From IMG/VR virus record IMGVR_UViG_3300034120_003123: 49,048 nt of DNA, one strand, 5' to 3'. A program made the translations under genes and the position numbers. Origin of the DNA: an uncultured virus (IMG/VR IMGVR_UViG_3300034120_003123) (lineage: Duplodnaviria > Heunggongvirae > Uroviricota > Caudoviricetes). Below are positions 8,001 to 49,048 of this stretch, one piece after another; positions within the stretch are counted from its first letter, which is position 1, and each line of letters begins with the position of its first letter. The notes below the pieces were generated by a model that did no database searches, had not been told where the DNA came from, and was given only the letters and a program-made list of their open reading frames with translations.

Positions 8001-11000
8001 AGTTACTTTATCATTAGGCAGTAACGATGTCAAGAAATTAATCACTTGTTGCTTAGCGCTAAATTCATAACCTCTATTTATTGCATTTCCATTTATAAAA
8101 ACTTGTACCACAAATTTATTTATATTTGGATCATTCAAAACATAACTTGGTAAACTAAACTTCAATTCCTTATTGACAATAGATCTTGCATTTTCAGAAG
8201 AAATAATATCCAGTAATTCTGATCCAAAAAATACACTCTTTGGAAGCTTCCTCATAAGAACGGGATCACTATTAAGGATAACTATCAGTCCATTTTGACT
8301 GGATATCAGTAAATATTTGCCGTACTCTTCCGTGTTAATCAATTTGCCGGAATCAAATCTTTGACTTGTTTGATTAGAGGAAGAAACGCCATTAAAAGTA
8401 GAAATTGGATAATTAGATATTAATGGAATTTCATCAAATGATGCCCCATTCATATATGCAACTTTTCTTTCAAAAGTGCATATTCTGCTATATGCATCTT
8501 TGGCATAGACTGACTTTACTATGCTTCCTGGGAGGCCGTCTTCGATACCGTAATATGTAAGATTGCCAATTTGACCAAAAAATAATCCCAAATTAGTTGA
8601 CACTGAAATGTTATTACTATTATCGATGGTAATATCATTAATATCAAAAATATTAGATAAAGAAGGACTACTAGTAGATGAGGTAAATTCCAACTGTAGC
8701 TTGGGAAGCTGACTATTTTCATTACCTGAACTGTCAGCAAAGCTTGAATTAGGTATTTGATTTCTTATTTCTAAAATATAGTCTTTTATCAAACATGTTT
8801 GACCTATTTTTCCAACAACCATATTGCCAGTACCATTGAAATTAATTTTAATATTTTTATTGACATCAAACGTAAAATCATTAATTGAAACTTCAAACCA
8901 TCTAAAATGGTCTGCTGAAATTAATAACTTGCAACTATTGTCTATATGCATAAAAACAAACATGTTTCCAAAGGGATCAATAAATGCATCTTTTATAACG
9001 TATGAAGCATTGCCAATAATAGATGCTAAATTATTATTGTCCCATAAGCTAGATTCCCAAGAGTTAAACACTTGGTCACTTGCATAGTCGTAATAATATA
9101 TGCCACTTTTTCCTATCATCCATACATCCCCATCATCAGCCACAAAAGACTTTATAATTGGATCTGATGGCATAATGTGCGTTAGATATCCGACTTTTCT
9201 ATAAGATAGTGGGTTTCTTGCACCAGAAACTGAGTAACTCACAGATTTAATAGTCATTCCAGTAGACACATAATTACTAGCGTCTCCGATTAAAAGACTT
9301 TTACGCACAAGTGCATCACTAACAGGATTCAAAGAAAAACTATACGGATCTTGGTTATCAAAACCCAATATATTTGAAGGTAAACTTACGTCAAGCTCAT
9401 ATATATATGCTCTAGTATTTTCATCTGAAAAATCATCATACAACAATGTGCTGATAAAGTTATTAGAAGAAATTAATTTTGGTAAAGCGACGCTAGAAGA
9501 GCCTCCAAGTCTACCTATGTCAAGTCTTGAGTCATACCCGCCCTCAGTAGATCCAGAATCATTTACTATAGAACTACCAGACGATAGCCAAGATCTATAT
9601 ACTCTACTCCATCTGGCAAAATAATACCCATTATCTGCGAGCTTTCCAGTCTCTGTTTGAGTTAATAGATTTGGAGAATATGGATCCGTAAAGTCAAAAG
9701 AAGATGTTGCAAGGTCTTTGGCTATATAATCATTCGATTTTTTCCAGCACAGTATCAAATCGCCAGAAGAATCCACTAAAGATATGGAAGGCTCAACGGA
9801 ATGTGAAATTTCATTTATAGACACAATTGAACTAGGCAAGTCATAAAAATTTAGCTCAGCAGAACATTGTCTATAAAATATTTTATAAGCATTCTCTATA
9901 ATATCTTGATAAACAATATGCACGTTTCCATCTTTATCTGCAATGATATCAGATAAGTCAGCTTTTGATATGCCAGGATTGCTAACAAGCTTTCCTATTT
10001 CTAGGCCACTTTCATTTGTCCAAGAATGTAAGGCTATATTGTATTTAGCTATCTTTATATGACTATTTCCATTTGGATCCAATTCAGTCCAAGTTGCATA
10101 TAAATAATTCATTCTTCCCGATACTGCAGGATTGTATGCAGCATATCCACTGGAACTAATTGCTCTAGCATCATCTCCAACGCCCACCCAATTCCTTGCA
10201 AACGAGTCAAAATATGCATGCATAATTTCGTATACGCCAGTCCTAGAGTCAGACCAAAGTACATGAACCCCATCATTTTCGTCCAGTATCATAGAAGGCC
10301 TGATAGACGAGCCTCTATCATTGCTTATATTAAATTGAGTACTCCAGCCAATGTCGTTTTTACTTATAACTATGATATCAGAATGGTCATATGCAAATGT
10401 TTCATAAGATACATATATATAGCCAGAGGCAGTTACTACAAAATCAAATGACTTGATTGACGACATGTATACAGGTACTGTATAAACTGCAGAAAATTGC
10501 CCACTTTCTAAAGATTCAACATATCGTATACTGTCATAGTCTCCATCATCTTCAATCCACATAACGTATGTTTTAGAATTAACATTGAATATTTTGTGGT
10601 TAGTTATATTCCTAGATATATTAGATATGGGATTTAATGCAAAACTGTCAAGCAACACATAGTCACGGTCTGCAGAAGACTTCTTCCACAATTTTACCCT
10701 ACCATCAATTCCATTAAATCTTAGCTTAGTCATTTCAGACAAATCTATAGGAATATTTTTTCCTATCTTTGCTATTCTAATTGACGAATTACTAAAAGAT
10801 ATTTCTTGATCATACGAGCCATCATTAATGTAAATGCCTAAAAAGTTTTTGTCAGAAAATCCAACTGGCCTTAGACTATCTTCTAATGGATTAACCTTAC
10901 ACTCTATTTCTAGAGAATACCCAGATGCACTATTTGCACTATCAAACCATGGAGATCCTGGGCTGTTATGAGATATGAAAGCTCTTCCACCAGAGAAAGA

Positions 11001-13442
11001 AGTTTGAGAAGCATCAGCATATGGATCGATAGAATCAGCAGTGTTATTTATATAAAAAATATATTCCACTTGCTGTGAGTCAGAGCTATATTCTACCAAA
11101 TCTAATGTTGATAAATTATTTGTTCCATTTAAAATATAAAATGAAAAGAAATCTTTTATATAAGAAGTATTGTCAACAGTGGCAAACAAGTCTTTTAAAT
11201 ATGTTACTAAATTATCTATAGTAGTAAAATTATCTAAATTAACAGAATGCTGACGTAAATTCGTATCTCCGTTATTTAATATAGACAATATGCCATTGTT
11301 AACAGAAAAGCTAAATTCATTCAAAAATAAACTTTTGATTACAAAAGATGGGTATTCTAGTTCATTAGATCTTTTTATTGTAGAAACTCTTCCCACAGAA
11401 GCAAAACTATTAGATATGTAAAGTCCATCAGAAACAATCGAAATTCCAGAACCTCCAGAAGAGGAAACAACACTCCAATTATTATCATACAAATCACTAA
11501 GAGACTGAAACTCTACTGAAGAATCCCAACTTAAAAATGGATCTCCTTTAAATAAAGAAATACCTTTATTGCTAGAAACCGCAAAAGATTCATGAGCTGG
11601 AGAAATGTCTACATGATTTACAACAAATACAGACTCTGACAGACTTTCAACATCAAACTTTAAATTATTTTTAGAATAGTCATACTTATATATTTTAGAA
11701 TACTCATCGGATATATCTTTTGCTGCGACTAAAACACCATTCGGAGTAACCTCTATGTCATTGATAACTAAGTTTGGTAAATCTATAATTTCTGAAAAAC
11801 TTGTCAATGCAGATACCTCACCTGAATCTAAATGATAAGCATTATCAACACTCAATCTAATAGAAGAGATAGTGCACTTTAAATCTCCATTTCCACCACG
11901 TGGTATCAAATTAAAATACTTATCTTTAGAAATTTGCGTAGACTGATTGTACTTTGCAAGCAAAATACCGTCCACATACAAATTAATATCGTTACCCTTT
12001 ACTGATAAAATATACTCTCTAAAAATAGAGTTATCCACATCTGCCTTAACTTTAGTATTGGTGTCAATATTAATTCTTACAAAACTTTTATGAAAATCAA
12101 CAACATAAGACTGTGCACCATCTGCAATATTCAAAGACAAAACATCTAGTGGAGATTCTTCACCAGTGAGTATCTCACATTTTAATTTTATGAATATTGT
12201 GTAGCCATTTGAAGCAGAAATATTGTCATTCCAAGTATTTCCAAACGTTTTAAAATATACAGTTTCATATCGTCCGATATTGTTGTTTTTATCAACCGGA
12301 GCAACGGATACGTAATAATCCATGCCTTTTTCTAAGACATCAGGTGGAATGAAAAAACTATAAACATTAGAATCTACATGCGTGCTTAATAAGTTAGAAC
12401 TTCCTTCTGAATGGCCTAATTTAATATGATACTTATGAACTTTTTCTTTTATATTGTCGCTTACATTCCACAATACGTTAACAGCGTCATAAGAAACAAA
12501 ATTAGAATCAGATACTCCATTAATTACACAATTTTCTAACTGTAAATTGTAGTCTCCTATAGTTACTCGATCTGTTAAGACGCTGTTGCCTGAAAAACCG
12601 CTCCAATTAGAATCTATTCTTGCATGAACAATATCGTTAGGTCTTATATTAAGTCTAGCAAATTTAGAATCAGATGAGCCACTGACTTCAACATCATTTA
12701 CATACCACCTTACTACAGATTCGTCTCCAATATTCTCTAAAACATTATTTTTATATAAACTATATGACACTTCTAAAATGTCATCTGGATTTGGATTAGA
12801 TGGGATTATAGATATGTTACTTACATACACGTTTGGATTAGGGATCAATATTGAGTCTACGTCAAATAATAATCCAGACTCCAATTCATTGTACGGGATA
12901 ACTTGAGCATTCCACACGTCTCCATATTCAATATTTCTTGATGGCACAGAGTATGAGTCATCTAAATAAGATTGCATTTTCCCATTCTGAAACCATCGAG
13001 TTTTTATTAAAGTGTCAGCATTAGGCTTAATAACATTAAGGGTTATTCCAGATTCAATTCCATAATTATTTAAAAAGTAGGCATCTATAATATGAGGAAT
13101 ATCATTTACGTAAACTGTAAAAGTTTTCCAAAAAGACGTATTTCCAAATTGATCAAAAATTCTGATTTGCCCATATAGTTCAAGACTTCTTGGCAAATTA
13201 ACACCAGGGAAAAAAGAGTAGTCCTGCCTAGCCTTATTGCTTCCCACATGCTCATAAACGTTTCCCACAAACAAGTCTGTTCCTAACCCAAAACTATCTG
13301 AACCTATTTTTATATCAAAACCACTTTGCGAAAACTGTGATGGACCAAATTGCCAAGCAATAACAAACCCTTTAGGGAGAACCTTAAGTGGCTCATCTAT
13401 AAATTTCTTACCATTTATACTAATGTCAATATATTCAATCAT
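5016..13442 (-). CDS. Giant multidomain virion/tail-associated protein (2808 aa): FN3/Ig-like domains, two ConA-like domains, several beta-propellers, tandem C-terminal beta-sandwich modules
   Basis: Long ORF coupled to its neighbours. BNR-like blades (PSMILDENDGVHVLWSDSRTGVYEI; IADKDGNVHIVYQD), Reg_prop-like YGIEDGLPGSIVKSV, Ig-like DRTPPSG...DAVSGI...LIDNAGN, duplicated W-x-D-x(3)-AS-(N/S)GY-(T/S) segments. Located in a tail operon. Confidence 0.75.
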   Translation of the reverse strand: MIEYIDISINGKKFIDEPLKVLPKGFVIAWQFGPSQFSQSGFDIKIGSDSFGLGTDLFVGNVYEHVGSNKARQDYSFFPGVNLPRSLELYGQIRIFDQFGNTSFWKTFTVYVNDIPHIIDAYFLNNYGIESGITLNVIKPNADTLIKTRWFQNGKMQSYLDDSYSVPSRNIEYGDVWNAQVIPYNELESGLLFDVDSILIPNPNVYVSNISIIPSNPNPDDILEVSYSLYKNNVLENIGDESVVRWYVNDVEVSGSSDSKFARLNIRPNDIVHARIDSNWSGFSGNSVLTDRVTIGDYNLQLENCVINGVSDSNFVSYDAVNVLWNVSDNIKEKVHKYHIKLGHSEGSSNLLSTHVDSNVYSFFIPPDVLEKGMDYYVSVAPVDKNNNIGRYETVYFKTFGNTWNDNISASNGYTIFIKLKCEILTGEESPLDVLSLNIADGAQSYVVDFHKSFVRINIDTNTKVKADVDNSIFREYILSVKGNDINLYVDGILLAKYNQSTQISKDKYFNLIPRGGNGDLKCTISSIRLSVDNAYHLDSGEVSALTSFSEIIDLPNLVINDIEVTPNGVLVAAKDISDEYSKIYKYDYSKNNLKFDVESLSESVFVVNHVDISPAHESFAVSSNKGISLFKGDPFLSWDSSVEFQSLSDLYDNNWSVVSSSGGSGISIVSDGLYISNSFASVGRVSTIKRSNELEYPSFVIKSLFLNEFSFSVNNGILSILNNGDTNLRQHSVNLDNFTTIDNLVTYLKDLFATVDNTSYIKDFFSFYILNGTNNLSTLDLVEYSSDSQQVEYIFYINNTADSIDPYADASQTSFSGGRAFISHNSPGSPWFDSANSASGYSLEIECKVNPLEDSLRPVGFSDKNFLGIYINDGSYDQEISFSNSSIRIAKIGKNIPIDLSEMTKLRFNGIDGRVKLWKKSSADRDYVLLDSFALNPISNISRNITNHKIFNVNSKTYVMWIEDDGDYDSIRYVESLESGQFSAVYTVPVYMSSIKSFDFVVTASGYIYVSYETFAYDHSDIIVISKNDIGWSTQFNISNDRGSSIRPSMILDENDGVHVLWSDSRTGVYEIMHAYFDSFARNWVGVGDDARAISSSGYAAYNPAVSGRMNYLYATWTELDPNGNSHIKIAKYNIALHSWTNESGLEIGKLVSNPGISKADLSDIIADKDGNVHIVYQDIIENAYKIFYRQCSAELNFYDLPSSIVSINEISHSVEPSISLVDSSGDLILCWKKSNDYIAKDLATSSFDFTDPYSPNLLTQTETGKLADNGYYFARWSRVYRSWLSSGSSIVNDSGSTEGGYDSRLDIGRLGGSSSVALPKLISSNNFISTLLYDDFSDENTRAYIYELDVSLPSNILGFDNQDPYSFSLNPVSDALVRKSLLIGDASNYVSTGMTIKSVSYSVSGARNPLSYRKVGYLTHIMPSDPIIKSFVADDGDVWMIGKSGIYYYDYASDQVFNSWESSLWDNNNLASIIGNASYVIKDAFIDPFGNMFVFMHIDNSCKLLISADHFRWFEVSINDFTFDVNKNIKINFNGTGNMVVGKIGQTCLIKDYILEIRNQIPNSSFADSSGNENSQLPKLQLEFTSSTSSPSLSNIFDINDITIDNSNNISVSTNLGLFFGQIGNLTYYGIEDGLPGSIVKSVYAKDAYSRICTFERKVAYMNGASFDEIPLISNYPISTFNGVSSSNQTSQRFDSGKLINTEEYGKYLLISSQNGLIVILNSDPVLMRKLPKSVFFGSELLDIISSENARSIVNKELKFSLPSYVLNDPNINKFVVQVFINGNAINRGYEFSAKQQVINFLTSLLPNDKVTFNLRTDIVLENNFSQNGAEKAAFGVETRNVKSILFDNGQSYAVVHGNSDYIAVSDENISLPYDEVILDRTPPSGKVKFISQTGPDSIYLGIDPPSQNTPYDAVSGIASMVISNYDNFTSDGSTPIDPIPFRPTVGHNLISALSNNASIFESDTDNFSKLITFTRPNSVQKLYAFTSSPIRIYERETSGSFSDIPLAILENGNDDFAIGFVHKFGSSLIIGTRSISGINSGKVIKTTDMQTFTEIAVLPGSGATSAFMSTFDQNLYIGTDGSLSSDPNGSIVVYNGESVSSFKNRLDKAILSLSGFERFLFAGTYDSGYIYRIDIASGVVEIIHADSSDAILSLTTLGTAVFGGTAGRGVIIRAKDNDVGFIDSFKTVPSNINVLKTIQLSDNTSRIYAGVGSKLYSFKNAWTLEGTADSDINDFVIDENDRLIFCSNSQVKSVQPEGSQERRVFVKLIDNAGNETDIKSAPDTIAPPDGYNDDLTLVLTSEELAATYLQSKMLEVDGSGNVVYYINGDAPFYSSERIMKETGVYLSEVFNGTTGHVSWGKFAWEGFSPDGTDIRFYIRVSDSRSGILSQPFTFEIDKNSNNVDISFLNGQYLQIKVVMRSLVNTSPYVSKIVITNNAGSASHFFTNTFPLPANIKRGIITLEKDLPVGSDIIVGVSGRDATDFSQYQIIPENRIFSFDNSNQGQKLRVGFRFVSPQNVSDVPAGSDLGSLQGLGSILSNSIYFDFENTTGNSRLVDFKIDIFEDQNMQVLNSSFDSLSSPQLFRVNGNPFPGGGGVNIPSGFGYRFHFIPFGAELACDSNYFVKVSVIEGANVSQYGNLIPFRKVCGVNFVNDINFTYINQQDTVQNLHFEVAFYEDELRQNIVKSYSSLYPATNFKYLADFFDYPLGGLILEPNQSSVISLSFINQEISKFDSTKTYYVTISYFDLNQSATSRSVESMNYTFRVVYVNSDIACGSSSGVPVLKGFAFMFELEDGRLIKFNYLS

Positions 13443-13443
13443 T

Positions 13444-14514
13444 TTATTTTATTATAATTCCGTTTTTAATTAGAATTAAACCTTGTCCAGAAAGTATTTG
13501 TCCGTCACTTGAAGATTCTTGATTAGAACCAGACTCATCCTGTGACAAATAAACTACCGTTAAATCACTTAATGCATTTTCTGAAGTCAAACTATACTTT
13601 TTATTCCAATAGCCAGAGTCTCCCTTTAAAATGACCCCGTCTTGAGTGCCAGCTATAATATCTCCACTGGATATATCAACTGCTGAAACAGGGGGAGATA
13701 TAGAAGCGTCTTGAAAAAAGCTTATTTTTGCATCAAACACTCTTTCTGATATATTCCCAGAAATTTCATTAATATAAGTAGAAAATCCGTCTGCTATAAT
13801 TTTGGATATTTTGTAATTTTCATTAATTGCATCAGCGATAATAAATAAATCATCTAATACCCCTTTATTCTTTTCTAAACTTCTAATATCACCTTCTATA
13901 TTTTTGTTTATGTACAATTCTGGAAGAGATGGAAGCCCAAAAAATGGAGGCAACATGGCAGCGCTTGATGACAAAATGCTCTCTACACCATTGATGTATA
14001 ATTTCACTTCTCCTATTTCTGGATTGACTGAAAACATAAAATGGTTAAATAAGCCTGTCTCATATATCTCACTATCAAATTCGACCCTCTCTCCACCAGC
14101 AGTCATAAGAACCAGATACATTTTATTGTATTTAGAAAATACGCACTTTTCATATATTAAAAATAAGCCATCATTTAGAACATAAGACTGGTTAATTACA
14201 CTAGAGTTTCCTACAGACACTATTGGCATGGAGGGACTAATAGCAACATCCCCAAAGATCTTGTCAGACAAAGATATAGAATTCAACCAAAATCCTACAG
14301 AAAACTCCGACTTTATATTTTGATATCTTGTATAAGAAATTGGCAGCGAAAAGTACCCAGAATCTGACATTAAAACACCTTTGCCAAACACTGCAGGGAC
14401 TAAGTCCGTAACTCCTGATCCATTAAAATTTACAATTTCAAAACTTCCTGTTTCGATGACAGGAAATTGATCAAAACTAAAATGTATATATTTTTCTATA
14501 CTTAATGTACTCAT
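13444..14514 (-). CDS. LamG/concanavalin A-like jelly-roll domain protein (356 aa), probable tail-associated
   Basis: LamG-like pattern: VFGKGV...EFSVGFWLN...FNHFMFSV...VKLYINGVE...KGVLDDLFI. ATGA overlap with the upstream gene. Confidence 0.75.
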   Translation of the reverse strand: MSTLSIEKYIHFSFDQFPVIETGSFEIVNFNGSGVTDLVPAVFGKGVLMSDSGYFSLPISYTRYQNIKSEFSVGFWLNSISLSDKIFGDVAISPSMPIVSVGNSSVINQSYVLNDGLFLIYEKCVFSKYNKMYLVLMTAGGERVEFDSEIYETGLFNHFMFSVNPEIGEVKLYINGVESILSSSAAMLPPFFGLPSLPELYINKNIEGDIRSLEKNKGVLDDLFIIADAINENYKISKIIADGFSTYINEISGNISERVFDAKISFFQDASISPPVSAVDISSGDIIAGTQDGVILKGDSGYWNKKYSLTSENALSDLTVVYLSQDESGSNQESSSDGQILSGQGLILIKNGIIIK

Positions 14515-17500
14515 TTAATTGTAAACTTAAATTTTATTGGCAAGGTATTTGTAAACTTAATTCTTACATCTTTGGGAATTTCTCTTTTTATCCATAAATA
14601 TATTATATTATTATAAGAAATAGACCTAGTCAAATTATTATCAACTTGCGGTATTGATAAATCATCTAAATTGTTAATATCATAGAACTGAGTTAGTCTA
14701 TTTGATATTACAGGAGCTATTTTACCTTGAAAACTATTAGATGCAGGACCAGGTATAATTTCTATTTTTTCAAATTGGTTAGCTGGCATAGGTAGATCAT
14801 TATCGAGTTCAATATAACTTTGATTGATAGAAGAAATTTTGCGATAGTAAGAGTCTCCAGAAACCATAGAAAATCTCATGAGAGAATCTACGTATTGACT
14901 TATATTGCGATTTATAACATAATTTTGTAAATTTTCTGTTTCAATATTTATACTTCTAGTTCCAGAGCCAACCGAACTACTTAGAACAACATATTTGTGT
15001 GCTGGCAATTCAACAGCAAAGCTAAGCTTCACGAGACCAGGTTTAAAATTATTATCTAATAAAATTTTTGGATCAATAATAGATATATTTGGATATATAT
15101 TTCTAATACTTAAACATCTGTATTGATAAATATATTTTGAATTTACATCTAAATAAAAGTTATTATCAAATACTTCATTTTTTCCAACCCCAAATACGTT
15201 TGCTCCACTAGCGTGGAATCTCCTAGGAGTATTGCCAACGCCTCTTTCAAGTATTTCAGCTGTACTGTTATTCCAATTTCCAATCTTTATAATTTCTCCG
15301 TCCACAGAAACATGGTCAAAACTTGACAGCATATCAGACTGGGCATCATTAATCGACAAGAAGCCAGAAGAACCTCCAATTATACTGGTTAAGCTTGCGT
15401 GTGGGCAAACTGACTTAAAAGAACAATATCTACCAAAATTTTGCTTAACCTGAGATCCTATTAAAGAATGATCATTTAGAGTACCCTCTAAAGACATAAT
15501 AACAAAAGGATTGTCAAACCCAGTAAAATTAACAGATGGATTGGCCAATAAGCCTGTAGCAAAATCAACTTCTGTATAAACTTTTTGTGGATCAAAATAA
15601 AGTCCGTCACTCAAAGACAGATCAGAATTATTCAAAACTTCAGCATGAAAGCCAGGAATCGAATCTATTTCTGAAACTATATCTCCAATAAATTTGTTTT
15701 TAATAGAAATATCAAAAAGAATATTTGAAGAAGATCCATTATCATTAAGCAAAATTGCTTGTAAGAAATTTTCTCCGCCTCTTTGACCAACTAAGATTTT
15801 CCATGAAAAGTTGTTTAAATCTAGTCCGGTGATATTTTTGATTCCATTTTCATTAATTCTTACCGCCATAACTCCAGTATATGCGGATACGTCCACTGAA
15901 GAGCTTGAAGAACTGCTAGAGGAAATAGGAGAAACTGACCAGCTGCCAAGCAATGCACCCAAATCATTTGCGCCAACAACTCCATCTCCATCAAAGTCAA
16001 AGACTCTTAAACATTCAGGAGATGGATTTGGACCCCAGCATCCAAGCAATGCGCCAAGATCGACGGCATCAATAACTCCATTATCGTCCCAGTCGCCCTT
16101 CATGAAAGAAGAGCTAGAAGATCCAGGCACGACAGTCCACATTCCAAGCAATGCACCCAAATCATTTGCGCCAACAGCTCCATCTCCATCAAAGTCAAAA
16201 TATCTTCTGCATCTATCTGACGGGTTTGAACCCCAGCATCCAAGCAATGCGCCAAGATCGACGGCATCAATAACTCCATTATCGTCCCAGTCGCCCTTCA
16301 TGAAAGAAGAGCTAGAAGATGAAGATACGACAGTCCATATTCCAAGCAATGCACCCAAATCATTTGCGCCAACAGCTCCATCTCCATCAAAGTCAAAGAC
16401 TCTTAAACATTCAGAAGATGAGTTTGAACCCCAGCATCCAAGCAATGCGCCAAGATCGACGGCATCAATAACTCCATCCCCATTCCAGTCACCCTTCATG
16501 AAAGAAGAGCTAGAAGATGAAGAACTACTTGAACTCCCACCTCCATCATAATTAAGTGCATTCTCTATGCCTAAAGAAAAGTCTTGCCAATCGGCTACAG
16601 TCTGCTCTTTGTGTTTATGTATAAAGATAAAATTATCAAATAATTTTTCTTTAGAAATTTTTTGTAAAATATCATACCAAGAAGACACAAATGCTCGGAT
16701 ATCGAAAGAATATCCATCTTGAAAATCTATATCAAAAATATTGCTAATACCATTGGTAATAGTACCATTTTGAAAATTTCCCAAAGATAATGTGTTTGCT
16801 GCCAAAGAAACATGCGAGGTATTATTGTTTATGCCATGAGTAAATATAACTTTTGTTTTTTCCTTAAAAGAAGAAGAAGAATTGAGTGCGTATATAGTAT
16901 TTAATAAATATTGAGCATACCTAGTATGATTTTTTTGTAAAAGCATCTGTATATTTGATCTATGTATGTCTCCATATACTATATCGCTTTCTGGATCTCC
17001 AGTAGGTCCTGCACCATAAGAGAACGTACCTCTTCCATCAGGAGCGTTTTCATAAGAAGGCCTCCATCCAAAATTCATTTCAACTTGATTGTTATTACTA
17101 TAACTATTAAAATATTCTAGACTTTCAAACCTAACTTTACGATTATCAAAATTAGGTTCCCAATCAAATAAGGCATTATTAACTCCATCATCTATTGCGA
17201 TTGAAGTTGGGCAAACATGATTAATATGAAAACTAGAAGTTTTTGGTAAATTAAAATCATGCTTACCATTGTAATAATGCCACCTATTAACAAAATAATA
17301 AAATGGAGCCTGTACATTGCAATAAGAAAGATTGTTATTAATACCGCAAGCGAAACCTCTTTGAGCATACCTGCCATTTGTAAAAGCATTTTCTACATGA
17401 ATGCCCAAACTTTCATAAATGCGTCTACTAGCAACTTCGTCAATTAAAACTTGCAACCATTTTTCCATAGCAGCATTGTCTTGAACTGAATATGCATACG

Positions 17501-19841
17501 ATTTATCCTGCCTACTGTAATCTTTAACACTAATTTGACCAATAATATTGTTTGAATTCTCAGACATGCGATTTACACTAAATTCGCTAGACTGACATGC
17601 GTAATCGTAAGCGTCTTTTAATGTTAAATAATTTCTCCAAACAAAACCCTGTGATACATCCCTAAATCTTTCATCACTGAAATGATGATGCCATGAACCA
17701 AAATAGCTTCCAATTTCTAAACACTCAGAATCACTTGCTGATTCTACACCTATATAATTTATAAAATCATGTGGAGCTAACACGGATTGTTCATCAATGT
17801 ATACTATGCGAGGATTAGGAACTATACTGAGCCCCCCATATGCCCTCCTGTTATGCTGCCTATATTTAAATCTTTCAATAAATCTTTTTGTCCACACTGA
17901 ACACTCAAAAACACCATTTTTGGCATACAGATTTTTAAGTCTGTCAATCGGCTTTCTTTCTGCATCTAAGTCTTCATCAAAATAGCTAAAAATCTGATCT
18001 AATGAATTAGTAAAAAGTCTACACCAGCCTTGAGATAAGGTTTCATCTAAATTTTCCTGAGTACATTGATGGTCAAAAAGATCTCCCCAATTTTCTAGCT
18101 TAATGGCTACGTTATTAGGATTTTCAAAATCTATATTAGCCCTGTCCACTCCATTATATGAACTCTGATATTGCAATATCATATCAAAAGCTGCATCAGC
18201 ACATTTTTCTGGACCATAAGTTCCATAAGGACTAGAGTTATTTACTTTTAAAATATCGTCAGAATTTTGAATTGTCCAACTACTTACAACTTCATCCACC
18301 ATAGATGTGTCAATGCAATTTTCTGGACGATTAGAAAACCACCAGGATGGGACATATGTTCTAGATATGCTTTCATCAATATTTTTGTAATTTTTAGAGC
18401 AGTTTACTTTAATTACTGGCACTATACGCTCGTCAAATTTTACAGAAGATCTTAAATAAGAATTACTTACACTGGTTGCACCATTTGAATCTTTTGCTTC
18501 CCCTGCAGACTCACTAAAAAAGAAAAGAGATTTACCGAATAATCTTTCATTCGATTTCTTTTCTGCATATTCCACCGATGCTGATATTTTATTGAATTGA
18601 GAAACTATGTTGTCAAAACTTAGTGAATTTATATTAATAGAATACGGGATTTGAATTCCAGGAATAAACCCGCAATCATCCACCATCTCATCTAGTTCCT
18701 CCTGGGAATAAGATGAGATATCATTGAGACTGAATGAACTGTGTATTTCAGCTCCTTTATCAAACATTCTTAAACCACCGAAAAGACGTGTCATATTCTG
18801 ACTAGTAAATCCAAAAGGATTATCAAAATTAGATATTATTCTAAAATTAGAATACTCATTACTGTTTAAAAGTTCTCCATTTATATTAGGTATGTTAACG
18901 TGCATAAAATATGCACCATACAATTTCCAAACAGCATCATTAATGTTATTAAAGTTTAATATATTTTGCAATAGAGACAATTTACAATTACTTAAACCTA
19001 CTCCAGAAATACCATTAGCAAAAAATTCATTTAAATTATATTCAAGCCATATTCTATGAGCAGGTAAATTAATATTAAAATCCGATTCTATATTTATAAA
19101 ATCATCCTGTGGTAAACTTAAAACGTCAAGATTTACTTCACTATTTGAAAATATGACCTTAGACCCCATCTCTACATTCACTTCAACAAACTCGTGTTGA
19201 CTTCTTGTCCAATAAGATAAATGGCCAATAAAAGAATCATAAAAACTTGCATATATTTTGTCGTCTAAGCGAAGATTGCTTACGTCAAATGGCAAAGAAT
19301 CCTCAGAACAAGCGCCAGACTCTTCTAATAATGTAGTGAAATAATAAGATTGCAAATTATCAAATGTATTTCTAATATTACTGGATAAATTGTGAGTTTC
19401 TGTATTAAGATGACATCCAGAAGGGCATTGCAAAGAAAATCTTCTAAAACCAGCGTCATATAATCTGCTTAAATAATTATTAAAGAAATTCTTAAAGCCA
19501 TTAGGCCCATAGAAGGCAGGACCCAATCCCCTTGTTTTAACTATGTTGCACAAATCTTCAACATTAGGGACACATCTAGCAGGTCCGAAATTGGTAATTA
19601 CAATGCCCACATCTAGCCCATCAACTTCTCCATTACGGTCAAGATCTGCCGGATGACCAGGGTTATTTCCCCAATTCTCTTGCACTATAGCCAAGTCTAG
19701 GTCGTCCACGACGCCATCCCTATTCAAATCTGGACATGGAGTGTATGCAAGAGAGGGTACAGTTGCAAAGGACATAGGATCGCATATGATGCGAGCAATT
19801 GGACGACGGTCTACCCTAAATTGTGATTTTGGAATTTGCAT
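14511..19841 (-). CDS. Dockerin-like (EF-hand) repeat-bearing virion protein (1776 aa) with poly-Ser linkers and a C-terminal phage structural module
   Basis: N-terminal CPDLNRDGVVDDLDLAIVQENWG...ADLDRNGEVDGLDVGIVITNFG; three tandem GDW(N/D)xxGVIDAVDLGALLGCWG...DFDGDGxVGANDLGALLGxW units; Ser runs; C-terminal VDGEIIKI...LERGVGNTPRRFHASGA...YQYRCLSIRN...IYLWIKREIP resembles phage tail proteins. Confidence 0.8.
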   Translation of the reverse strand: MQIPKSQFRVDRRPIARIICDPMSFATVPSLAYTPCPDLNRDGVVDDLDLAIVQENWGNNPGHPADLDRNGEVDGLDVGIVITNFGPARCVPNVEDLCNIVKTRGLGPAFYGPNGFKNFFNNYLSRLYDAGFRRFSLQCPSGCHLNTETHNLSSNIRNTFDNLQSYYFTTLLEESGACSEDSLPFDVSNLRLDDKIYASFYDSFIGHLSYWTRSQHEFVEVNVEMGSKVIFSNSEVNLDVLSLPQDDFINIESDFNINLPAHRIWLEYNLNEFFANGISGVGLSNCKLSLLQNILNFNNINDAVWKLYGAYFMHVNIPNINGELLNSNEYSNFRIISNFDNPFGFTSQNMTRLFGGLRMFDKGAEIHSSFSLNDISSYSQEELDEMVDDCGFIPGIQIPYSININSLSFDNIVSQFNKISASVEYAEKKSNERLFGKSLFFFSESAGEAKDSNGATSVSNSYLRSSVKFDERIVPVIKVNCSKNYKNIDESISRTYVPSWWFSNRPENCIDTSMVDEVVSSWTIQNSDDILKVNNSSPYGTYGPEKCADAAFDMILQYQSSYNGVDRANIDFENPNNVAIKLENWGDLFDHQCTQENLDETLSQGWCRLFTNSLDQIFSYFDEDLDAERKPIDRLKNLYAKNGVFECSVWTKRFIERFKYRQHNRRAYGGLSIVPNPRIVYIDEQSVLAPHDFINYIGVESASDSECLEIGSYFGSWHHHFSDERFRDVSQGFVWRNYLTLKDAYDYACQSSEFSVNRMSENSNNIIGQISVKDYSRQDKSYAYSVQDNAAMEKWLQVLIDEVASRRIYESLGIHVENAFTNGRYAQRGFACGINNNLSYCNVQAPFYYFVNRWHYYNGKHDFNLPKTSSFHINHVCPTSIAIDDGVNNALFDWEPNFDNRKVRFESLEYFNSYSNNNQVEMNFGWRPSYENAPDGRGTFSYGAGPTGDPESDIVYGDIHRSNIQMLLQKNHTRYAQYLLNTIYALNSSSSFKEKTKVIFTHGINNNTSHVSLAANTLSLGNFQNGTITNGISNIFDIDFQDGYSFDIRAFVSSWYDILQKISKEKLFDNFIFIHKHKEQTVADWQDFSLGIENALNYDGGGSSSSSSSSSSSFMKGDWNGDGVIDAVDLGALLGCWGSNSSSECLRVFDFDGDGAVGANDLGALLGIWTVVSSSSSSSFMKGDWDDNGVIDAVDLGALLGCWGSNPSDRCRRYFDFDGDGAVGANDLGALLGMWTVVPGSSSSSFMKGDWDDNGVIDAVDLGALLGCWGPNPSPECLRVFDFDGDGVVGANDLGALLGSWSVSPISSSSSSSSSVDVSAYTGVMAVRINENGIKNITGLDLNNFSWKILVGQRGGENFLQAILLNDNGSSSNILFDISIKNKFIGDIVSEIDSIPGFHAEVLNNSDLSLSDGLYFDPQKVYTEVDFATGLLANPSVNFTGFDNPFVIMSLEGTLNDHSLIGSQVKQNFGRYCSFKSVCPHASLTSIIGGSSGFLSINDAQSDMLSSFDHVSVDGEIIKIGNWNNSTAEILERGVGNTPRRFHASGANVFGVGKNEVFDNNFYLDVNSKYIYQYRCLSIRNIYPNISIIDPKILLDNNFKPGLVKLSFAVELPAHKYVVLSSSVGSGTRSINIETENLQNYVINRNISQYVDSLMRFSMVSGDSYYRKISSINQSYIELDNDLPMPANQFEKIEIIPGPASNSFQGKIAPVISNRLTQFYDINNLDDLSIPQVDNNLTRSISYNNIIYLWIKREIPKDVRIKFTNTLPIKFKFTIK
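15946..16520. repeat. Three near-identical 198-bp tandem repeats (66-aa dockerin-like units)
   Basis: CCAAGCAATGCACCCAAATC starts at 15946, 16144 and 16342; CATGAAAGAAGAGCTAGAAGAT starts at 16101, 16299 and 16497. The period is exactly 198 bp. Confidence 0.97.
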
Positions 19842-19844
19842 AAA

Positions 19845-21350
19845 TTAAATCGTTATTTCTACCAAATTGACATTTTGATCTTTGTATATAAATACTTTTT
19901 CGGAACTATTTGTTAATATAAAAACAGAATTAAATTGACCTTTTGAAAAACCTAAAATTCCAATTTGAACATCGAATATAAATTGCAGTGAATCATTAAA
20001 TAGCCTATATATTTCACCATTTATACAACCTACCAGTACACCTCCATCTCCCGAATCTGCAATTGCCACTATTTCAGTATCTGGTGTTAAAAGAGAAGCA
20101 ACAGGCACTATGCCATTTGCCTCTATAGAAACAAGATCTAATAGTCTATTTCCATTAAATCTACTTCCGTACAATTTTCCGCCAATATAAGCTAGAGATG
20201 ATATAAGACCACTAAACGAACTTATGGGCGTAATAAGCCCGTCAGATATTTTTAAAACTTGAGTAAAATTACCATCATATATACATATATATAGTGAATC
20301 TTCCGTTTTAGACCAAGAAGTGATCTTAAATCCATTTCTGTTATAAAATTTTCTAAATTTATTTCCGATCTTAATTAAACTTGCATCTTCTTGATTAGCT
20401 CTATTTCCGGCAATGTCTTGAACAAGACCTGTGATTACAAATCTGGCATCTTTATCAGAAAGTTGTAAGAAATTATTTTTTTGATAAAAACGAGGTTCAC
20501 TTTGAGAATTTTCCGTAGTAGAACCATCAGCATTTCTTTCATTTTCTATGAGCTTAAAGCCATGTATGCCAGACATGTCGTCATAAGCGAATAGTTCAAT
20601 GCCGACAGTTCTATCTCTTATATATCCATTGTTAGAACTTATTTTTAAAGCTACATCTGGGCCGTCAGTGTCAATAATTACGTATCCTTGATTCTCTACT
20701 GTGAAAGGTCCTATTGAAGACTGAGGGCCCTTTCTACCAAAATCATCGCTATAAAAACCGTATATAAAATAGTCTTGACCAGGATTCAACTGAGAAGTAT
20801 TCCATATAATTTGAGAGGTAGAGCCAGAAACCCTTTCCACTATTGGAGCATAAGATATATCATTTGACTGGCTAGAATAATATAGATTTATTCTGTACCT
20901 ATTCAGCTTGTAAGTATCTTCAGATATGATAGAATTTTGCAACTGTATATTTATTTGAGAACCATATGTTTTACCAGAAATAGGGTTAGATATTGATATC
21001 TTAGGCAATGGTTTTGACAATATTGACAATATTCCGCTTGATGAATAATCAGAAAACTGACCACTTTGATTAATACTTCTTACCCCAATAAATATATCTG
21101 AACCAAATAAATACTCTGGTATTACCCAATTGTATTTATTAACAGAAGATGGCACTCTAGATATTCTTTTCCATTCTTGTGAAGAATAAGAAATAACATT
21201 TCCTATCCTATAATAAATTTCATAAAAATAAACTGGATCAAACTGACCAAATGTAACATTTGGAGATTTCCATTTAATTTCTATTATTTTTGTAGAAATT
21301 TTTTCAGCACCAAGCGGATATTCTATAACCGGTATGCCAGGAAGTGCCAT
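19845..21350 (-). CDS. FN3/Ig-like plus C-terminal beta-propeller protein (501 aa), probable tail-associated
   Basis: FN3-like IKWKSP...YEIYY...GVRSINQSGQFSDYS; Ig-like DTDGPD...AYDDMSGI...VQDIAGN; propeller-like ISSLAYIGGKLYG, VLVGCINGEIYRL. TAATG coupling. Confidence 0.7.
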   Translation of the reverse strand: MALPGIPVIEYPLGAEKISTKIIEIKWKSPNVTFGQFDPVYFYEIYYRIGNVISYSSQEWKRISRVPSSVNKYNWVIPEYLFGSDIFIGVRSINQSGQFSDYSSSGILSILSKPLPKISISNPISGKTYGSQINIQLQNSIISEDTYKLNRYRINLYYSSQSNDISYAPIVERVSGSTSQIIWNTSQLNPGQDYFIYGFYSDDFGRKGPQSSIGPFTVENQGYVIIDTDGPDVALKISSNNGYIRDRTVGIELFAYDDMSGIHGFKLIENERNADGSTTENSQSEPRFYQKNNFLQLSDKDARFVITGLVQDIAGNRANQEDASLIKIGNKFRKFYNRNGFKITSWSKTEDSLYICIYDGNFTQVLKISDGLITPISSFSGLISSLAYIGGKLYGSRFNGNRLLDLVSIEANGIVPVASLLTPDTEIVAIADSGDGGVLVGCINGEIYRLFNDSLQFIFDVQIGILGFSKGQFNSVFILTNSSEKVFIYKDQNVNLVEITI

Positions 21351-24300
21351 TAGAATAATCTCCTAGTTCCAAAAGCGTTTCTCTTATCATTGTTAATATA
21401 TTTTTCTATAAAAGCATTGTTGTTAATAGGCTCTGCGTAAGAAAGATCCAAATTTGGGTCACTAAGTAGTCTTAATGTATTGACAAACGACTTCACAAAA
21501 GGGTTAAGACATTCTGAAGGGACATCTATAAATATGAAGCCCAATCCGTCCTTATCTGTCACTCCATTATTTTTATTTATTTTAAATATTGCAAAATACA
21601 CACCATCGCTATTTGCGACAGCAGATAAAGAAGATTCGTGGACTCTACTTCCTTGCTGGTACAAATAAGCTTTCATCATTCCTGAGTCTTTGCGTCTTGA
21701 GGAATATGAAGAAATTTGGTTGAGCGCATTAAGTCTTGCTATTCTTTGTGGGTCTTCAAAAGTAACTTGAACATATAAATCTACTTCTGTAGATTCATCT
21801 AAATTAATTGAACGCAAATCTTCTAATGACAATGTTACTGCAGTTTGATTATTTTCTGATGCCTTATACCATGTTTTCCTATTCACTACTGGAACACCTT
21901 TATAACGAATAGGCTTAAACAACTTGTCAGTTTCACCAGACTCTGCATAATAAACTTCTACTATATACGATATAGACGCGTACTCTGCAATGATGTCTAA
22001 ACAAAATTGTTGAGTTTTTCCGAATTGAGTCAAAACTTCTATGCAAACTCGCTTTACGCCATCTCCTTTACTCAAAACCCATGGAGCAACAAATATATCA
22101 TTAGCTATCCACTTTCCTTTAAATGCATCTCTGAACTTAGCGACATCTTCACTTATTATCTTGCCCATACTGTCAAGTGGCTGAATGGGGAGTCCTATAG
22201 GTATCCAATCTGTAAATTCAGACTCGGATTCATTCTTAATTCTAAATGCCATAGCACCTGGTATCCCAATAATTTCCAAATCCACAAAACAATCATTTAC
22301 GACTGGGGCAGGACTAGATGCAGCAATAGTTCTGTAAGACTTTACAAAACGCTCAGATACTCTTGCTTGCATAAACTCTCCGCCATCAAAGGCAGTAGCA
22401 TAACTTGATATGTCAGTCAGTGTGAATGAACATGCTTTAGTAACAGCAGATTCTTCTACAATAGTTGGTGTAATTTTTTGACCTACACTAAAATATCTTT
22501 TAATTATTTTGTTGTAACCAATATTTGCAAATAAAGAAAAATTACCAAAATGATCTGCAACAATTGCAGGCATTCTGTGGTCAGTGATGGCGGTATCTGA
22601 AGAACTAGATGTGTTAATCAGCAACCTATCTACACCTCCATGATATGAAGATTCTATCACATCTTTATTTAAATCAAAAAATCCACAATAAATATCTGAC
22701 TTTTGTATATTGCGGTTTATAACTCCATAAGTGCTTTCAGAATTTCTGCTATCCTCCCACACTATGGCAAATAAACCATCTTTCCCGCCATAAATATAAG
22801 GGTGACCGATGTAGTATGGAGAAAGTGCAATTCTAGTATTTTTAGATCCGTTCAATGGACTTCTCCAATCAAAAGAATCTTCTTTATAAGCCAATTCATT
22901 TTGACATTGACACAATATTGACCCTCTTGATATTTCAGAATAATTTCCATCAACAATAGCCTCTAATATTACATAATACTTCACTCCACATATAAGAGAG
23001 GATCTCGATAAATTATAATAATTGCCATACCCGGCAATTCTTGTTTGCTCATTTACCGAACTTCTATCTACTGGCACTTGGAAATTTTCTACATCTATAA
23101 TAGGTGGTGTAAAATTAACAGATACACTTGCATTAGGAGCTGCACCAATACCTGCAGATGGGTATACGTCATTACCACTTGACCACATTCTTGGATCAGA
23201 CGACGAACTAAAAACAAGCAATGAATCTTTATAATCGGCATCAGCAAACACAGAAACTTTAAAGTGGACATTTTTAACTTCTGTTGACTGATTAGTATAA
23301 GACATGTTTATCTTGCATGAATTAAATATTGGTTGTGCGCAAAAATAAGTTGTTGATATTTGACCAACAGCACTTCCACTATTAGAAACTACTATTCTTA
23401 AACTACCAAAAGGCCTCTCGCTTGCTCCCAAAGCAGAAGCAAGAGGGCTAACAGTTCCGAATGCGTCTGCATCCGACAATACTAACGATCCAGAATCTGA
23501 AACCAAAGAAGCGGGAAGTTCTTTTGCTGAAACTATTACGTCGCTCACAATTGTTTCAACATTTGCAATAACAGCACCTGGCTTTTTAGATGAACTAGAT
23601 CCTGGGACAGAAGGCCAAGACGCTCTGCGTGGCTGCCTAAATCTTACTGTTAAAGATTTTCTGTCCTCACTAAGTTTTATATATTCTCCTTGATAAAATT
23701 GAAAGTTTGATACTATATTTTTTCTCTGCACATTAATTGGTCTTGACGAATCATTAAAATATATATCCGTAGATTTCAAGTTACTTGAATCTATAATTAC
23801 TGCAACGATGGGAGAGCTAAAAGTAAGAGTTCCTTCTACTACGTTATTGCTCGTCAATCCATCATCTCCAAGAACAAGCAAAAAGCTTTTTACGTACTCT
23901 CCTGCACTAAAACCAGGCAAACTGGAAACTCCAGTTGGAAAGATAAAATTAACGTCTTTAGCAGAGCCAATTGATTCAAAGTACGACGATCTTTGCTCAG
24001 ATAAAGCAATAGGAGAATTTCCTGAAAATTCGTCAAAAATTAAAAATTCATTCAAAAAATCTATTGGGGGAGGCGATTTAATTTCTATGGGATATGGCCT
24101 TGAAGGAGCATCCCACCAACCGATTCCTCTACCATCAGTTATACTATTTGCTTTATAAGTAATAAATATTTCTTCTTGCTCATTTTCTATACTGTAGTCT
24201 ATTTCAACTTTTAAAACTTTGTTAAAAACATCATCATTTGCATCTGGAACATAAGATAATACAACAGTTTCTCCCTGAGCTATTACCTGTCCATTATACG

Positions 24301-35961: not shown

Positions 35962-36176
35962 TATGCCCCTACAATCCCGCTTTTAATTCCAACTCTTCCA
36001 TAAGACTGCTCTTCGCTTGTAGATACGTCAGTCAAACTTCTAGCTCCGCCATATAAACCGCCTTCAAAAACATTTTGCTGATGGTATAACTTTGTATAAT
36101 TTTCATTTATTTTTTTATCAATTAATGCATTAATATTATCTGCAAGTTGCTTACCAAGAGTAGGTATATTTTCCAT
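35961..36176 (-). CDS. Small hypothetical tail-tip protein (71 aa)
   Basis: Fills the gap between the 1302-aa and 1221-aa genes exactly, with TAATATG and TAATG junctions. Confidence 0.7.
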   Translation of the reverse strand: MENIPTLGKQLADNINALIDKKINENYTKLYHQQNVFEGGLYGGARSLTDVSTSEEQSYGRVGIKSGIVGA

Positions 36177-36177
36177 A

Positions 36178-48432: not shown

Positions 48433-49048
48433 TTAAATGAATGGATATGGGTGCTGAGCGCCGTTAGCATTTGTTCCAGGAGTCTCTAAAGCAGAGATAG
48501 CCTCATAGTTAAATGCTTGATCACCAAGAGCCATGAAGTCCATAGAAGAATTAAGAACATCATTTGTTAAATCCATTGACTCTAGCTTAAATACCACTCC
48601 ACGCAATTTAAACAGGGTCTTTGTAACATTTCCAAATCTTACATTAAATAGCAAATTAGCGCGAGATGTCTGCCCAATTTCATTATACATGGCATAGTCT
48701 GCTATATCTCTATTTCTACCCAAGAAATCTATACGACCAGTAATCATTCTCTTCTTTGCAACAAGATCGTATGCAGCAAGAGTTCCACTTAAAGTGTGGA
48801 CTGCTTCTACTTGATTATCTATAGTGACAGAAAAGCTCTTGACAAGCGGAAGTCTAGAAATATTTGGAGGAGTATTAACAACAACTCCAGTTGATATGGG
48901 AGACTGCTCAATATCAATTGTTACGTCATTATAAGTCACTACGCGCACAGGAGCGACATTAACTTTACCACCTACGGAAGAACCAAGGCCATCACCCATA
49001 ATCGCACTAGTGCCGTCAAATGGACCTTCACGACCTCTGCCCATAAAT
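48433..49048 (-). CDS. Phage tail tube (major tail) protein, probably 5'-truncated by the window edge
   Basis: Tube-like motif LVKSFSVTIDNQVEAVHTLSG...KRMITGRIDF...FKLRGVVF...MDFMALG. The frame stays open upstream of ATG 49044 to the edge. Synteny tube-chaperones-tape measure. Confidence 0.8.
   Translation of the reverse strand, partial: FMGRGREGPFDGTSAIMGDGLGSSVGGKVNVAPVRVVTYNDVTIDIEQSPISTGVVVNTPPNISRLPLVKSFSVTIDNQVEAVHTLSGTLAAYDLVAKKRMITGRIDFLGRNRDIADYAMYNEIGQTSRANLLFNVRFGNVTKTLFKLRGVVFKLESMDLTNDVLNSSMDFMALGDQAFNYEAISALETPGTNANGAQHPYPFI

Follow-up and report, generated by a model that had tools for sequence, protein, structure and literature searches.

Dockerin modules on a tail-module protein of an uncultured lake-water phage as candidate calcium-dependent tethers

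The 49,048-nucleotide stretch of DNA analyzed here (IMG/VR record IMGVR_UViG_3300034120_003123, from an uncultured virus of the Caudoviricetes; hereafter the window) contains an open reading frame (ORF) of 1776 amino acids (aa) plus stop that is open throughout (14511..19841; window coordinates refer to the minus strand unless marked otherwise). The source is an uncultured tailed phage of about 400 kb from lake water, and the ORF sits in its tail module. We found that the encoded protein carries four dockerin modules, one near the N-terminus and three in an internal array, joined to two tandem domains that are modeled as TIM barrels resembling glycoside hydrolases (GH). In textbooks, dockerins figure as the plugs of the multi-enzyme complexes on bacterial surfaces. 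The reading that we tentatively prefer, and which we put at a little under an even chance, is that the dockerins are accessory calcium-dependent tethers on a glycan-processing tail appendage, where they probably bind a ligand of the host surface or matrix. Nine dockerins on the giant tail-module proteins of one phage suggest a means by which phages could build or aim their adsorption organelles, and we have found no account of it in print.

Identification of the dockerin modules

Judged from their sequences, the modules of the 1776-aa protein are genuine dockerins. The Pfam family Dockerin_1 (PF00404) matched the protein in four stretches (E 8.6e-25), its score of 87.1 bits being well above the cut-off of 22.9. 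A motif scan located eight calcium-binding loops that form four pairs, at aa 38/66 in the N-terminal module and at aa 1118/1150, 1184/1216 and 1250/1282 in the internal ones, and the duplicated loop-helix segment of ~22 residues that characterizes dockerins was present. Consistent with this identification, a comparison of the family profile with solved structures returned dockerins as the best matches (2y3n_B, E 1.6e-5; 6kg9_A, E 5e-5), with calmodulin-type EF-hands after them, and the canonical Asp and Gly of the loops (unit positions D5, G10, D16, D37, G42 and D48) were invariant in 18/18 phage units. The pattern is not due to chance, because the architecture recurs in relatives from other metagenomes. 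An earlier note on this DNA, made from its letters, had proposed paired calcium-loop units of dockerin type, one N-terminal and three internal, joined by poly-Ser linkers in a protein without a signal peptide. Each of these points was borne out: poly-Ser runs were located at aa 1103-1113, 1173-1179, 1241-1245 and 1307-1315, and no signal peptide was found in the protein, whose polar N-terminus includes a modeled strand (aa 15-19) within the range aligned to the first barrel. A match to the NCBIfam family XopAW was rejected, given that its 37 bits compare with a cut-off of 120 and reflect the calcium loops only.

The four modules are of two subtypes. The N-terminal dockerin (aa 36-90; 19572..19736) is of a 'CPD...C' subtype, and in the structure model, which was made for this module, each of its calcium loops is followed by a helix (aa 47-55 and 75-83), at a pLDDT (predicted local distance difference test) of 60-85. 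The internal dockerins are of a second subtype, FMKGDW...CWG, and form a poly-Ser hinge with three tandem 66-aa units (aa 1101-1315; 15897..16541), namely u1 (16305-16502), u2 (16107-16304) and u3 (15909-16106), a periodicity that Tandem Repeats Finder recorded as 2.9 copies of 198 nt with 89% matches at 15946-16523. The loops and helices of u1-u3 are identical, including the putative recognition helices VDLGALLG and NDLGALLG, and the differences among the units are confined to the inter-loop linker and the tail. GC content at third codon positions (GC3) is 0.34-0.41 in the dockerins versus 0.20-0.23 in the rest of the gene. A 246-aa antisense ORF that spans the array (15811-16551, plus strand) was rejected as a gene, as it is a mirror image of the dockerin and poly-Ser repeats.

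Two predicted TIM barrels precede the internal array

An AlphaFold2 model of aa 1-1102, built from a 21-row alignment (pLDDT 71.2; predicted template modeling score, pTM, 0.79), was compared with 48,161 chains using the structure comparison VIA-align. In this model the region consists of two tandem TIM-barrel, GH-like domains, a call made at the level of fold only because 548 chains score at Z>=8. The first predicted (beta/alpha)8 barrel (aa 91-435; 18537..19571) gave overall Z scores of 13.1-10.7 against GH13, GH84, GH20, GH27 and Cwp19 enzymes. Within residues ~10-435 it aligned with 1mwo_A (Z 13.1, root-mean-square deviation (rmsd) 4.0, 263 aligned residues) and with Cwp19 (5oq2_A, Z 12.3), and also with GH84, GH20, GH27 and GH29 enzymes at Z 10.7-12.4. 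The second, TIM-barrel-like domain (aa 436-1100; 16542..18536) is the most conserved part of the protein, bearing the motifs KVNCS, GPEKCADAAFD, LENWGD and D-S-R. Residues ~434-1102 aligned with 2yih_A (GH44; Z 11.7, 288 residues) and 6gp5_A (GH53; Z 11.3, 260 residues), and its core is common to the distant relatives P0008-P0016. Foldseek likewise returned TIM-barrel enzymes for the model of aa 1-1102, at E 2e-4 to 1e-3, and a search of the ESM Atlas with the central domain gave no usable match.

The relation of the N-terminal dockerin to the first barrel is indicated by the peptide that precedes it. This peptide (aa 1-35; 19737..19841; motif F.(V/I)D(K/R)RP) is kept in 14/14 full or partial members of the family, dockerin-less members included, and its strand at aa 15-19 was modeled at a pLDDT of about 89. 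In the model the conserved strand appears to be part of barrel 1 and the N-terminal dockerin to be an insertion after it, which would explain why orthologues without dockerins still keep the peptide. In barrel 2, a set of polar residues (C481, E545, K546, D549, E583, H612, D615, N642, D723, R725, N789 and D1084) is kept into distant relatives, and the conserved polar residues include those of a predicted strand at aa 579-583. Among them, the candidate catalytic residues E545, D549, E583, D615, D723 and D1084 are conserved among close relatives.

Dockerins are optional modules of a rare protein family

Searching 5.8 billion proteins by means of a word index yielded 5 relatives, and a profile of the central domain searched against 1.84 billion representatives gave 13 matches at E<=1e-3, four of which were full-length. 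By this count the double-barrel cargo is a very rare protein family. Scans of metagenomes and viral records added nine related loci. Alignments of these sequences revealed a conserved chassis consisting of the N-terminal peptide, a central region of ~1000 aa with many invariant Cys and Trp residues, the hinge and a C-terminal domain of ~460 aa. The dockerins are optional grafts onto the chassis at two sites, one in a loop of barrel 1 that follows its first strand and the other in the hinge. Three orthologues (L039, L040 and L041, at 26-29% identity) have no Dockerin_1 match, P0002 has the N-terminal dockerin only, and in the remaining members between one and four stretches match Dockerin_1. 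P0001, which is 98% identical to the window protein, is without exactly one 66-aa unit.

Leaving aside the third unit of L036, which is divergent (20-22% identity), units within one protein are 82-88% identical to one another and internal units of different phages are 45-58% identical. The N-terminal modules of orthologues are 38-51% identical, about as much as the whole proteins. Since identity within a protein exceeds that between phages, the sequences indicate that the internal arrays are products of tandem duplications that are recent and lineage-specific. The dockerins are dispensable in the presence of the same neighbors, variable in number and recently duplicated, yet their helices stay constant, which makes it unlikely that they are an obligatory joint for assembly. 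Such a pattern suits an accessory device that binds multivalently through flexible tethers on a glycan-processing appendage.

Dockerins on other giant proteins and the search for a cohesin

A 100% identical copy of the 1776-aa ORF is present in a second virus record, G001, which is linear, 223,646 bp long and 55% complete according to CheckV. Positions 1-31580 of the window match the first 31,580 bases of G001 exactly, in reverse complement, and the remaining 17.5 kb of the window extend past the end of that record. Pfam and motif scans of giant ORFs in G001 identified five more dockerin modules, which makes nine in four proteins overall. Two are in a 5596-aa ORF with a SASA-esterase-like domain (L017, G001 46880-63670), one is in a 2587-aa ORF with RCC1 repeats and a pectate-lyase-like stretch (L018, G001 63734-71497), and two are in a 2671-aa ORF (L022, G001 144884-152899). 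Each of the five adjoins poly-Ser runs, of up to 41 residues. Like the N-terminal module of the 1776-aa protein, the five start with CPD and have Cys near the end, in the form CxxCPN in the giants and as a single Cys in the 1776-aa protein. One module of the 5596-aa ORF is 89% identical to one of the 2671-aa ORF, and dockerin modules appear, by this comparison, to move between giant genes of the same genome.

The same record encodes a very large set of sugar genes. Its >15 glycosyltransferases include several fucosyltransferase-like genes of type GT10 and one of type GT11, and NeuB, a CMP-sugar transferase, a GDP-mannose dehydratase and a sulfotransferase are encoded as well. Given the many glycosyltransferases and the length of the poly-Ser runs, O-glycosylation of these runs in the virion is a possibility. 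The sugar genes are located at 84.9-87.5 kb, 110-114 kb and 171-204 kb of G001.

The distribution of dockerins over four different giants is reminiscent of cellulosomal enzymes, and the 89% identical modules of two of them would suit one common socket. Both features are expected if the virion assembles itself in a cellulosome-like manner, the dockerins of the four giants plugging into cohesin-like sockets of other virion proteins and so clipping enzyme-bearing fibers to the tail. We judge this alternative unlikely. Pfam Cohesin (PF00963) had no match at E<=1 in a six-frame search of G001 (223.6 kb) and of G002, a related phage record (94.3 kb searched), nor did it match, at E<=0.01, any window ORF of >=120 aa upstream of G001, where a 71-aa ORF was outside the Pfam scan; together these searches cover roughly 300 kb of the ~400-kb genome. 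The recruitment onto the tail that the earlier note had envisaged is therefore left without a socket. Furthermore, an assembly joint should be indispensable, yet orthologues that are without dockerins keep their neighbors and the copies range from 0 to 4. When one dockerin unit was co-folded with a planctomycete cohesin and two calcium ions, using alignments of 18 and 7 rows, respectively, the scores were 0.05 and 0.03 against a mark of 0.32, which is evidence neither way.

The failure of the Cohesin searches to find a partner is also what would be expected if the dockerins had none and served as calcium-stiffened spacers, setting only the length and rigidity of the Ser-rich hinges. Such spacers would account for the modules always being found between poly-Ser runs and for a unit number that varies as in a length-setting repeat. 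We nevertheless regard this explanation as improbable, based on the logic that identical putative recognition helices beside varying linkers suggest selection on a surface, beyond length, and that the N-terminal module, an insertion in a barrel loop, cannot serve as a spacer.

Resemblance to dockerins of Planctomycetota

A genome scan with the three-unit array gave 4 confirmed matches among >=605 pattern matches, and 4/4 were in metagenome-assembled genomes (MAGs) of Planctomycetota (G003-G006), at 35-37% identity. The MAGs derive from water sites, among them a pond and an offshore site sampled at 120 m. Each of the four genomes (2.3-2.7 Mb) contains 34-51 matches to one 66-aa unit at 34-65% identity (best E 1.7e-10). 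In the stretches examined, which have a GC content of 66-70%, the dockerins are at the C-termini of proteins of ~630-660 aa. Among the rows listed from the Atlas, the first three were also dockerin clusters, with Bacteroidota, Planctomycetota and Planctomycetota as their commonest phyla and few members in each. Pfam Cohesin was detected in 6/21 genomes of the Planctomycetota family searched, including in a secreted protein of G003. Most dockerins of those small-genome Planctomycetota are thus also without an obvious socket. The affinity to Planctomycetota that the earlier note had recognized stands in so far as all four confirmed matches are in this phylum, but it holds at the level of phylum only, above the Phycisphaerales type that the note had named, and with an identity of just 34-65%.

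These matches raise the question of whether the phage infects a dockerin-rich lake planctomycete and docks on the cohesin anchors of its host as a receptor, a special case of the tether reading. Several observations are in favor: the closest cellular matches are all planctomycete and numerous in each genome, the family has cohesins, one of them secreted, and the phage gene is present in lake-water runs. In addition, PMC6461901 describes, for freshwater Phycisphaerae with reduced genomes, a cohesin/dockerin 'planctosome' and surfaces that are decorated with sialic acid, and the NeuB, CMP-sugar transferase and SASA-esterase-like genes of the phage echo the surfaces described there. We consider host mimicry a long shot all the same. 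The identity of 34-65% is spread over 66 residues dominated by the motif, the relatives are resolved to phylum only, and dockerin-rich Planctomycetota would head any search of this kind owing to their base rate. The GC3 of the phage dockerins (0.34-0.41) and the GC content of the phage (~32%) are far from the 66-70% of the MAG stretches, which is a weak argument for jumbo phages. Some jumbo phages are ~30 GC points from their hosts, so that GC alone cannot exclude a planctomycete host. In a comparison confined to the four planctomycete genomes, the translation initiation factor IF3 of the phage was 40-41% identical to theirs, which is uninformative on the host, and the M43/reprolysin-like peptidase of the phage had no match. 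Taken with the modest identity and the GC difference, these results do not so far support the mimicry of, or recent capture from, a host that the earlier note had put forward.

A more elaborate form of the same idea, which we likewise hold to be quite doubtful, is that the virion bears a cellulosome-like enzyme array, in which the nine dockerins on four giants would plug into host surface cohesins of the 'planctosome' kind as the receptor. The cargo of three of the giants would then be sugar-enzyme-like, namely the double TIM barrel, a helix of pectate-lyase-like type and a domain resembling sialate esterases, and that of the fourth would be propeller-like repeats. It would be a comparably speculative step to suppose that the number of plugs is tuned by tandem duplication.

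Tail-module context and the C-terminal module

The placement of the ORF in the tail module follows from gene order, which is the same in the window as in G002 (94,349 bp; CheckV 23%), and agrees with the tail operon of the earlier note. Upstream of the 1776-aa ORF and on the same strand, the window has a tail-tube-like ORF (48433..49044) with weak matches to Pfam Phage_tube_2 (E 3.9e-5) and phrog_290 (E 3.2e-4), two small ORFs and an 864-aa ORF (44765..47359), rich in Ala, Glu, Lys and Gln and coiled-coil-like, that is tape-measure-like in composition and position only. The G002 counterpart of the tube-like ORF matches phrog_290 at E 2.2e-10. In G002, terminase and portal come first; a protease fusion follows, then the major head protein (phrog_2522, E 7.6e-63), an ORF with a weak adaptor match and the tube-like ORF. 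Next are two small ORFs and, at the tape-measure position, a 934-aa ORF that had no PHROG or other family match, followed by three ORFs of 1.2-1.5 thousand amino acids (kaa), a glycosyltransferase, a giant ORF, a 501-aa ORF and the homologue of the 1776-aa protein. No sheath gene was recognized, so the tail type is not fixed by gene content.

The immediate surroundings of the gene are conserved as well. The order giant, ~500 aa, 1776-aa homologue, ~340-360 aa, giant was found in 4/4 loci that span all five positions (L036-L039), and the other five related loci, which are cut or start at the homologue, have the same order as far as they extend. In the window the five positions comprise a giant ORF of 3286 aa (21350..31210), an upstream neighbor of 501 aa (19845..21350) with a counterpart in 8/9 related loci (L041 begins at the homologue itself), the 1776-aa ORF, a downstream neighbor of 356 aa (13444..14514), whose start overlaps the stop of the 1776-aa ORF and whose homologue in L036 has a weak LamG-like match, and a giant ORF of 2808 aa (5016..13442).

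The C-terminal module (aa 1316-1776; 14514..15896) is beta-rich and conserved, and within it is a predicted small barrel (aa ~1478-1558; 15168-15410) that resembles tail-tip and hub proteins. In VIA-align comparisons this barrel (model residues 163-243) aligned, among others, with 8vjh_A from the Chi phage tail tip (Z 8.8, rmsd 1.8, 76 aligned residues), 8rk3_o from the baseplate of JBD30 (Z 8.6) and lambda J (8iyk_J; Z 6.9), the best of these scores being near the level reached by unrelated models. Foldseek with the C-terminal model against BFVD listed many tail and virion proteins, at TM <0.25 and rmsd >13, which we take as a hint only. No Pfam match at E<=10 was found for the C-terminal domain and six orthologues, and there was no PHROG match. 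We regard the small-barrel resemblance in the models as moderate support for a tail-structural module, in line with the phage-like C-terminal module that had been suspected from the sequence, and the module probably fixes the protein to the tail tip.

This context also bears on whether the protein is part of the virion at all. Its layout of enzyme plus dockerin is that of secreted cellulosomal enzymes, and a soluble enzyme that is released at lysis and tethered by its dockerins to debris or matrix would have the same layout. We think such a non-virion enzyme very unlikely indeed, as the gene lies within a structural module that shares its strand, its stop overlaps the start of the gene that follows, its synteny with giant tail-module ORFs is conserved, its C-terminal barrel is like those of tail-tip proteins, and it encodes no signal peptide.

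Some further observations on the module can be noted. RCC1-like beta-propeller repeats occur in both the 3286-aa giant (window 21350-31210, minus strand) and the 2587-aa giant of G001. A GT4-type glycosyltransferase is encoded inside the tail module (31212-32399, minus strand) and is conserved in G002. The prohead-protease-like domain forms the N-terminus of a 1933-aa ORF in the interval between portal and major head protein (L045:740-6538; G002 34740-40541). ARAGORN reported a tRNA-Val (cac) of 84 nt at 21134-21217 (minus strand), which is wholly within the 501-aa ORF and probably spurious.

A model for the dockerins as accessory tethers

Dockerins need Ca2+ to fold, and those of the phage would therefore be inert in the cytoplasm of the infected cell. 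On the reading that they are accessory tethers, we envisage that they would remain unfolded in the low-calcium cytoplasm and that external Ca2+ would fold them after lysis. Their flexible Ser tethers would make the folded dockerins multivalent, low-commitment tethers that keep the appendage attached to a ligand in the envelope of the host or in its matrix; a cohesin-type protein is one possibility. Such tethering would raise adsorption while the enzyme-like barrels act on surface polysaccharide.

Several points weigh against this reading. Regarding enzymatic activity, the barrels had no match to a Pfam, NCBIfam or PHROG family, and the conserved polar residues, while their sequences suit a putative binding or active site, do not include a catalytic pair that can be named; E583, the Glu of LENWGD, is mostly E or D and is S or R in some distant relatives. 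Regarding the virion, display of the 1776-aa protein is inferred from gene context and fold likeness, and the C-terminal model is mediocre (pLDDT 66.5, pTM 0.38), in addition to the modest scores of its small barrel noted above. Regarding the ligand, the negative result for cohesin concerns a genome that is ~55% complete by CheckV, and divergent cohesin-like folds may escape Pfam. On the side of the host, nothing besides the resemblance of the dockerins ties the phage to Planctomycetota. Lastly, many non-cellulosomal dockerins are not known to have a partner, and a purely structural, calcium-stiffened spacer therefore fits the same data.

Comparison with known systems

The phage modules share with type I cellulosomal dockerins (PF00404; 2y3n_B, 6kg9_A, 1daq_A and 1ohz_B) the two calcium loop-helix segments of ~22 residues. 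Unlike those dockerins, they are located in a barrel loop and an internal hinge instead of at the C-terminus, number up to four per protein and are bracketed by Cys. Cellulosomal enzymes also have a dockerin joined via Ser-rich linkers to cargo of TIM-barrel, GH-like fold, as is predicted for the phage protein. The phage carrier differs from them in being a tail-module protein without a signal peptide and in a genome in which no cohesin was found. The closest cellular relatives of the 66-aa unit are the non-cellulosomal dockerins of Planctomycetota, among them those of the 'planctosome' proposed for freshwater Phycisphaerae (PMC6461901), which share the LLxxWG ending and the water habitats. 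In contrast to the phage modules, they are found at the C-termini of secreted proteins, in stretches of 66-70% GC, and are 34-65% identical to the phage unit.

Tail tips of the lambda gpJ type (8iyk_J, 9e7m_Ja, Chi 8vjh_A, JBD30 8rk3_o and T1 9l9p_S) have in common with the 1776-aa protein the small beta-barrel, over ~76 aligned residues at Z 5.6-8.8, and a position downstream of a tape-measure or tape-measure-like gene. Unlike gpJ, the phage protein carries two predicted TIM barrels and dockerins and has no sequence-family match. A further comparison is with Omnitrophota, in which, according to bioRxiv 10.1101/2023.11.21.568195, giant proteins of 'dockerin-type' are proposed to attach to the surface of another cell. 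As described there, these extracellular proteins resemble those of the phage in being very large and in combining dockerin or EF-hand repeats with glycan-binding or glycan-processing domains. They differ in being cellular, membrane-anchored, Sec-linked and >=30,000 aa long, whereas the phage proteins are viral, 1.8-5.6 kaa long and encoded in or beside the tail module.

Our literature search, which had supplements outside its scope, found no account of dockerins being built into the tail proteins of phages and only passing mentions of dockerins in viruses. A dockerin gene is listed in a jumbo phage (10.1101/2024.01.25.577265) and dockerin domains are mentioned on a putative ANME virus contig (PMC13452462); the module in PMC5967307 is a carbohydrate-binding module, not a dockerin, and PMC3558961 gives a BLAST match in a non-tail gene. 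What is new here is the double-barrel cargo, the two graft sites, the range of 0-4 copies, in which some orthologues have no dockerin at all, the total of nine modules spread over four proteins and the negative result for cohesin. If the partner of the dockerins were a host cohesin, the surface-display sockets of the host would constitute a new class of phage receptor, and labeled dockerin arrays could be used to fish the host from lake water. If the partner were viral, the phage would provide a natural plug-and-socket system for virion assembly.

Occurrence and genome of the phage

The gene was recovered almost letter-perfect in 24 lake-water metagenome runs dated 2020-2024, with no RNA run among the 24. 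Its flanks are near-identical in runs X1, X3, X17 and X24 (2020, 2023 and 2024), a single A>G having been found in one X3 contig. The short-read contigs of all four of these runs end within the 198-nt repeat array, and one X24 contig has a joint that goes back 198 nt, a hint of a different unit count. Because the contigs break inside the array, natural variation in copy number is not measurable from short reads.

A tblastn search of 50,697 phage records with the whole 1776-aa protein and the 864-aa ORF found no match, and a DnaE piece matched distant phages alone in these records, at <35% identity. Because this search matched nothing close, homology gave neither a cultured relative nor a host. 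Among the replication and other genes of G001 are a split DnaE, DnaB, DnaG, RecA, UvrD and a protein with the N-terminal domain of IF3. The two pieces of DnaE, a 450-aa PHP/N-terminal piece and a 650-aa finger piece, are in the 92.8-100.5 kb region of G001 (L008, L023), within which the IF3 N-terminal domain protein is also encoded. Altogether, G001 contains about a dozen giant ORFs of 1.2-5.6 kaa.

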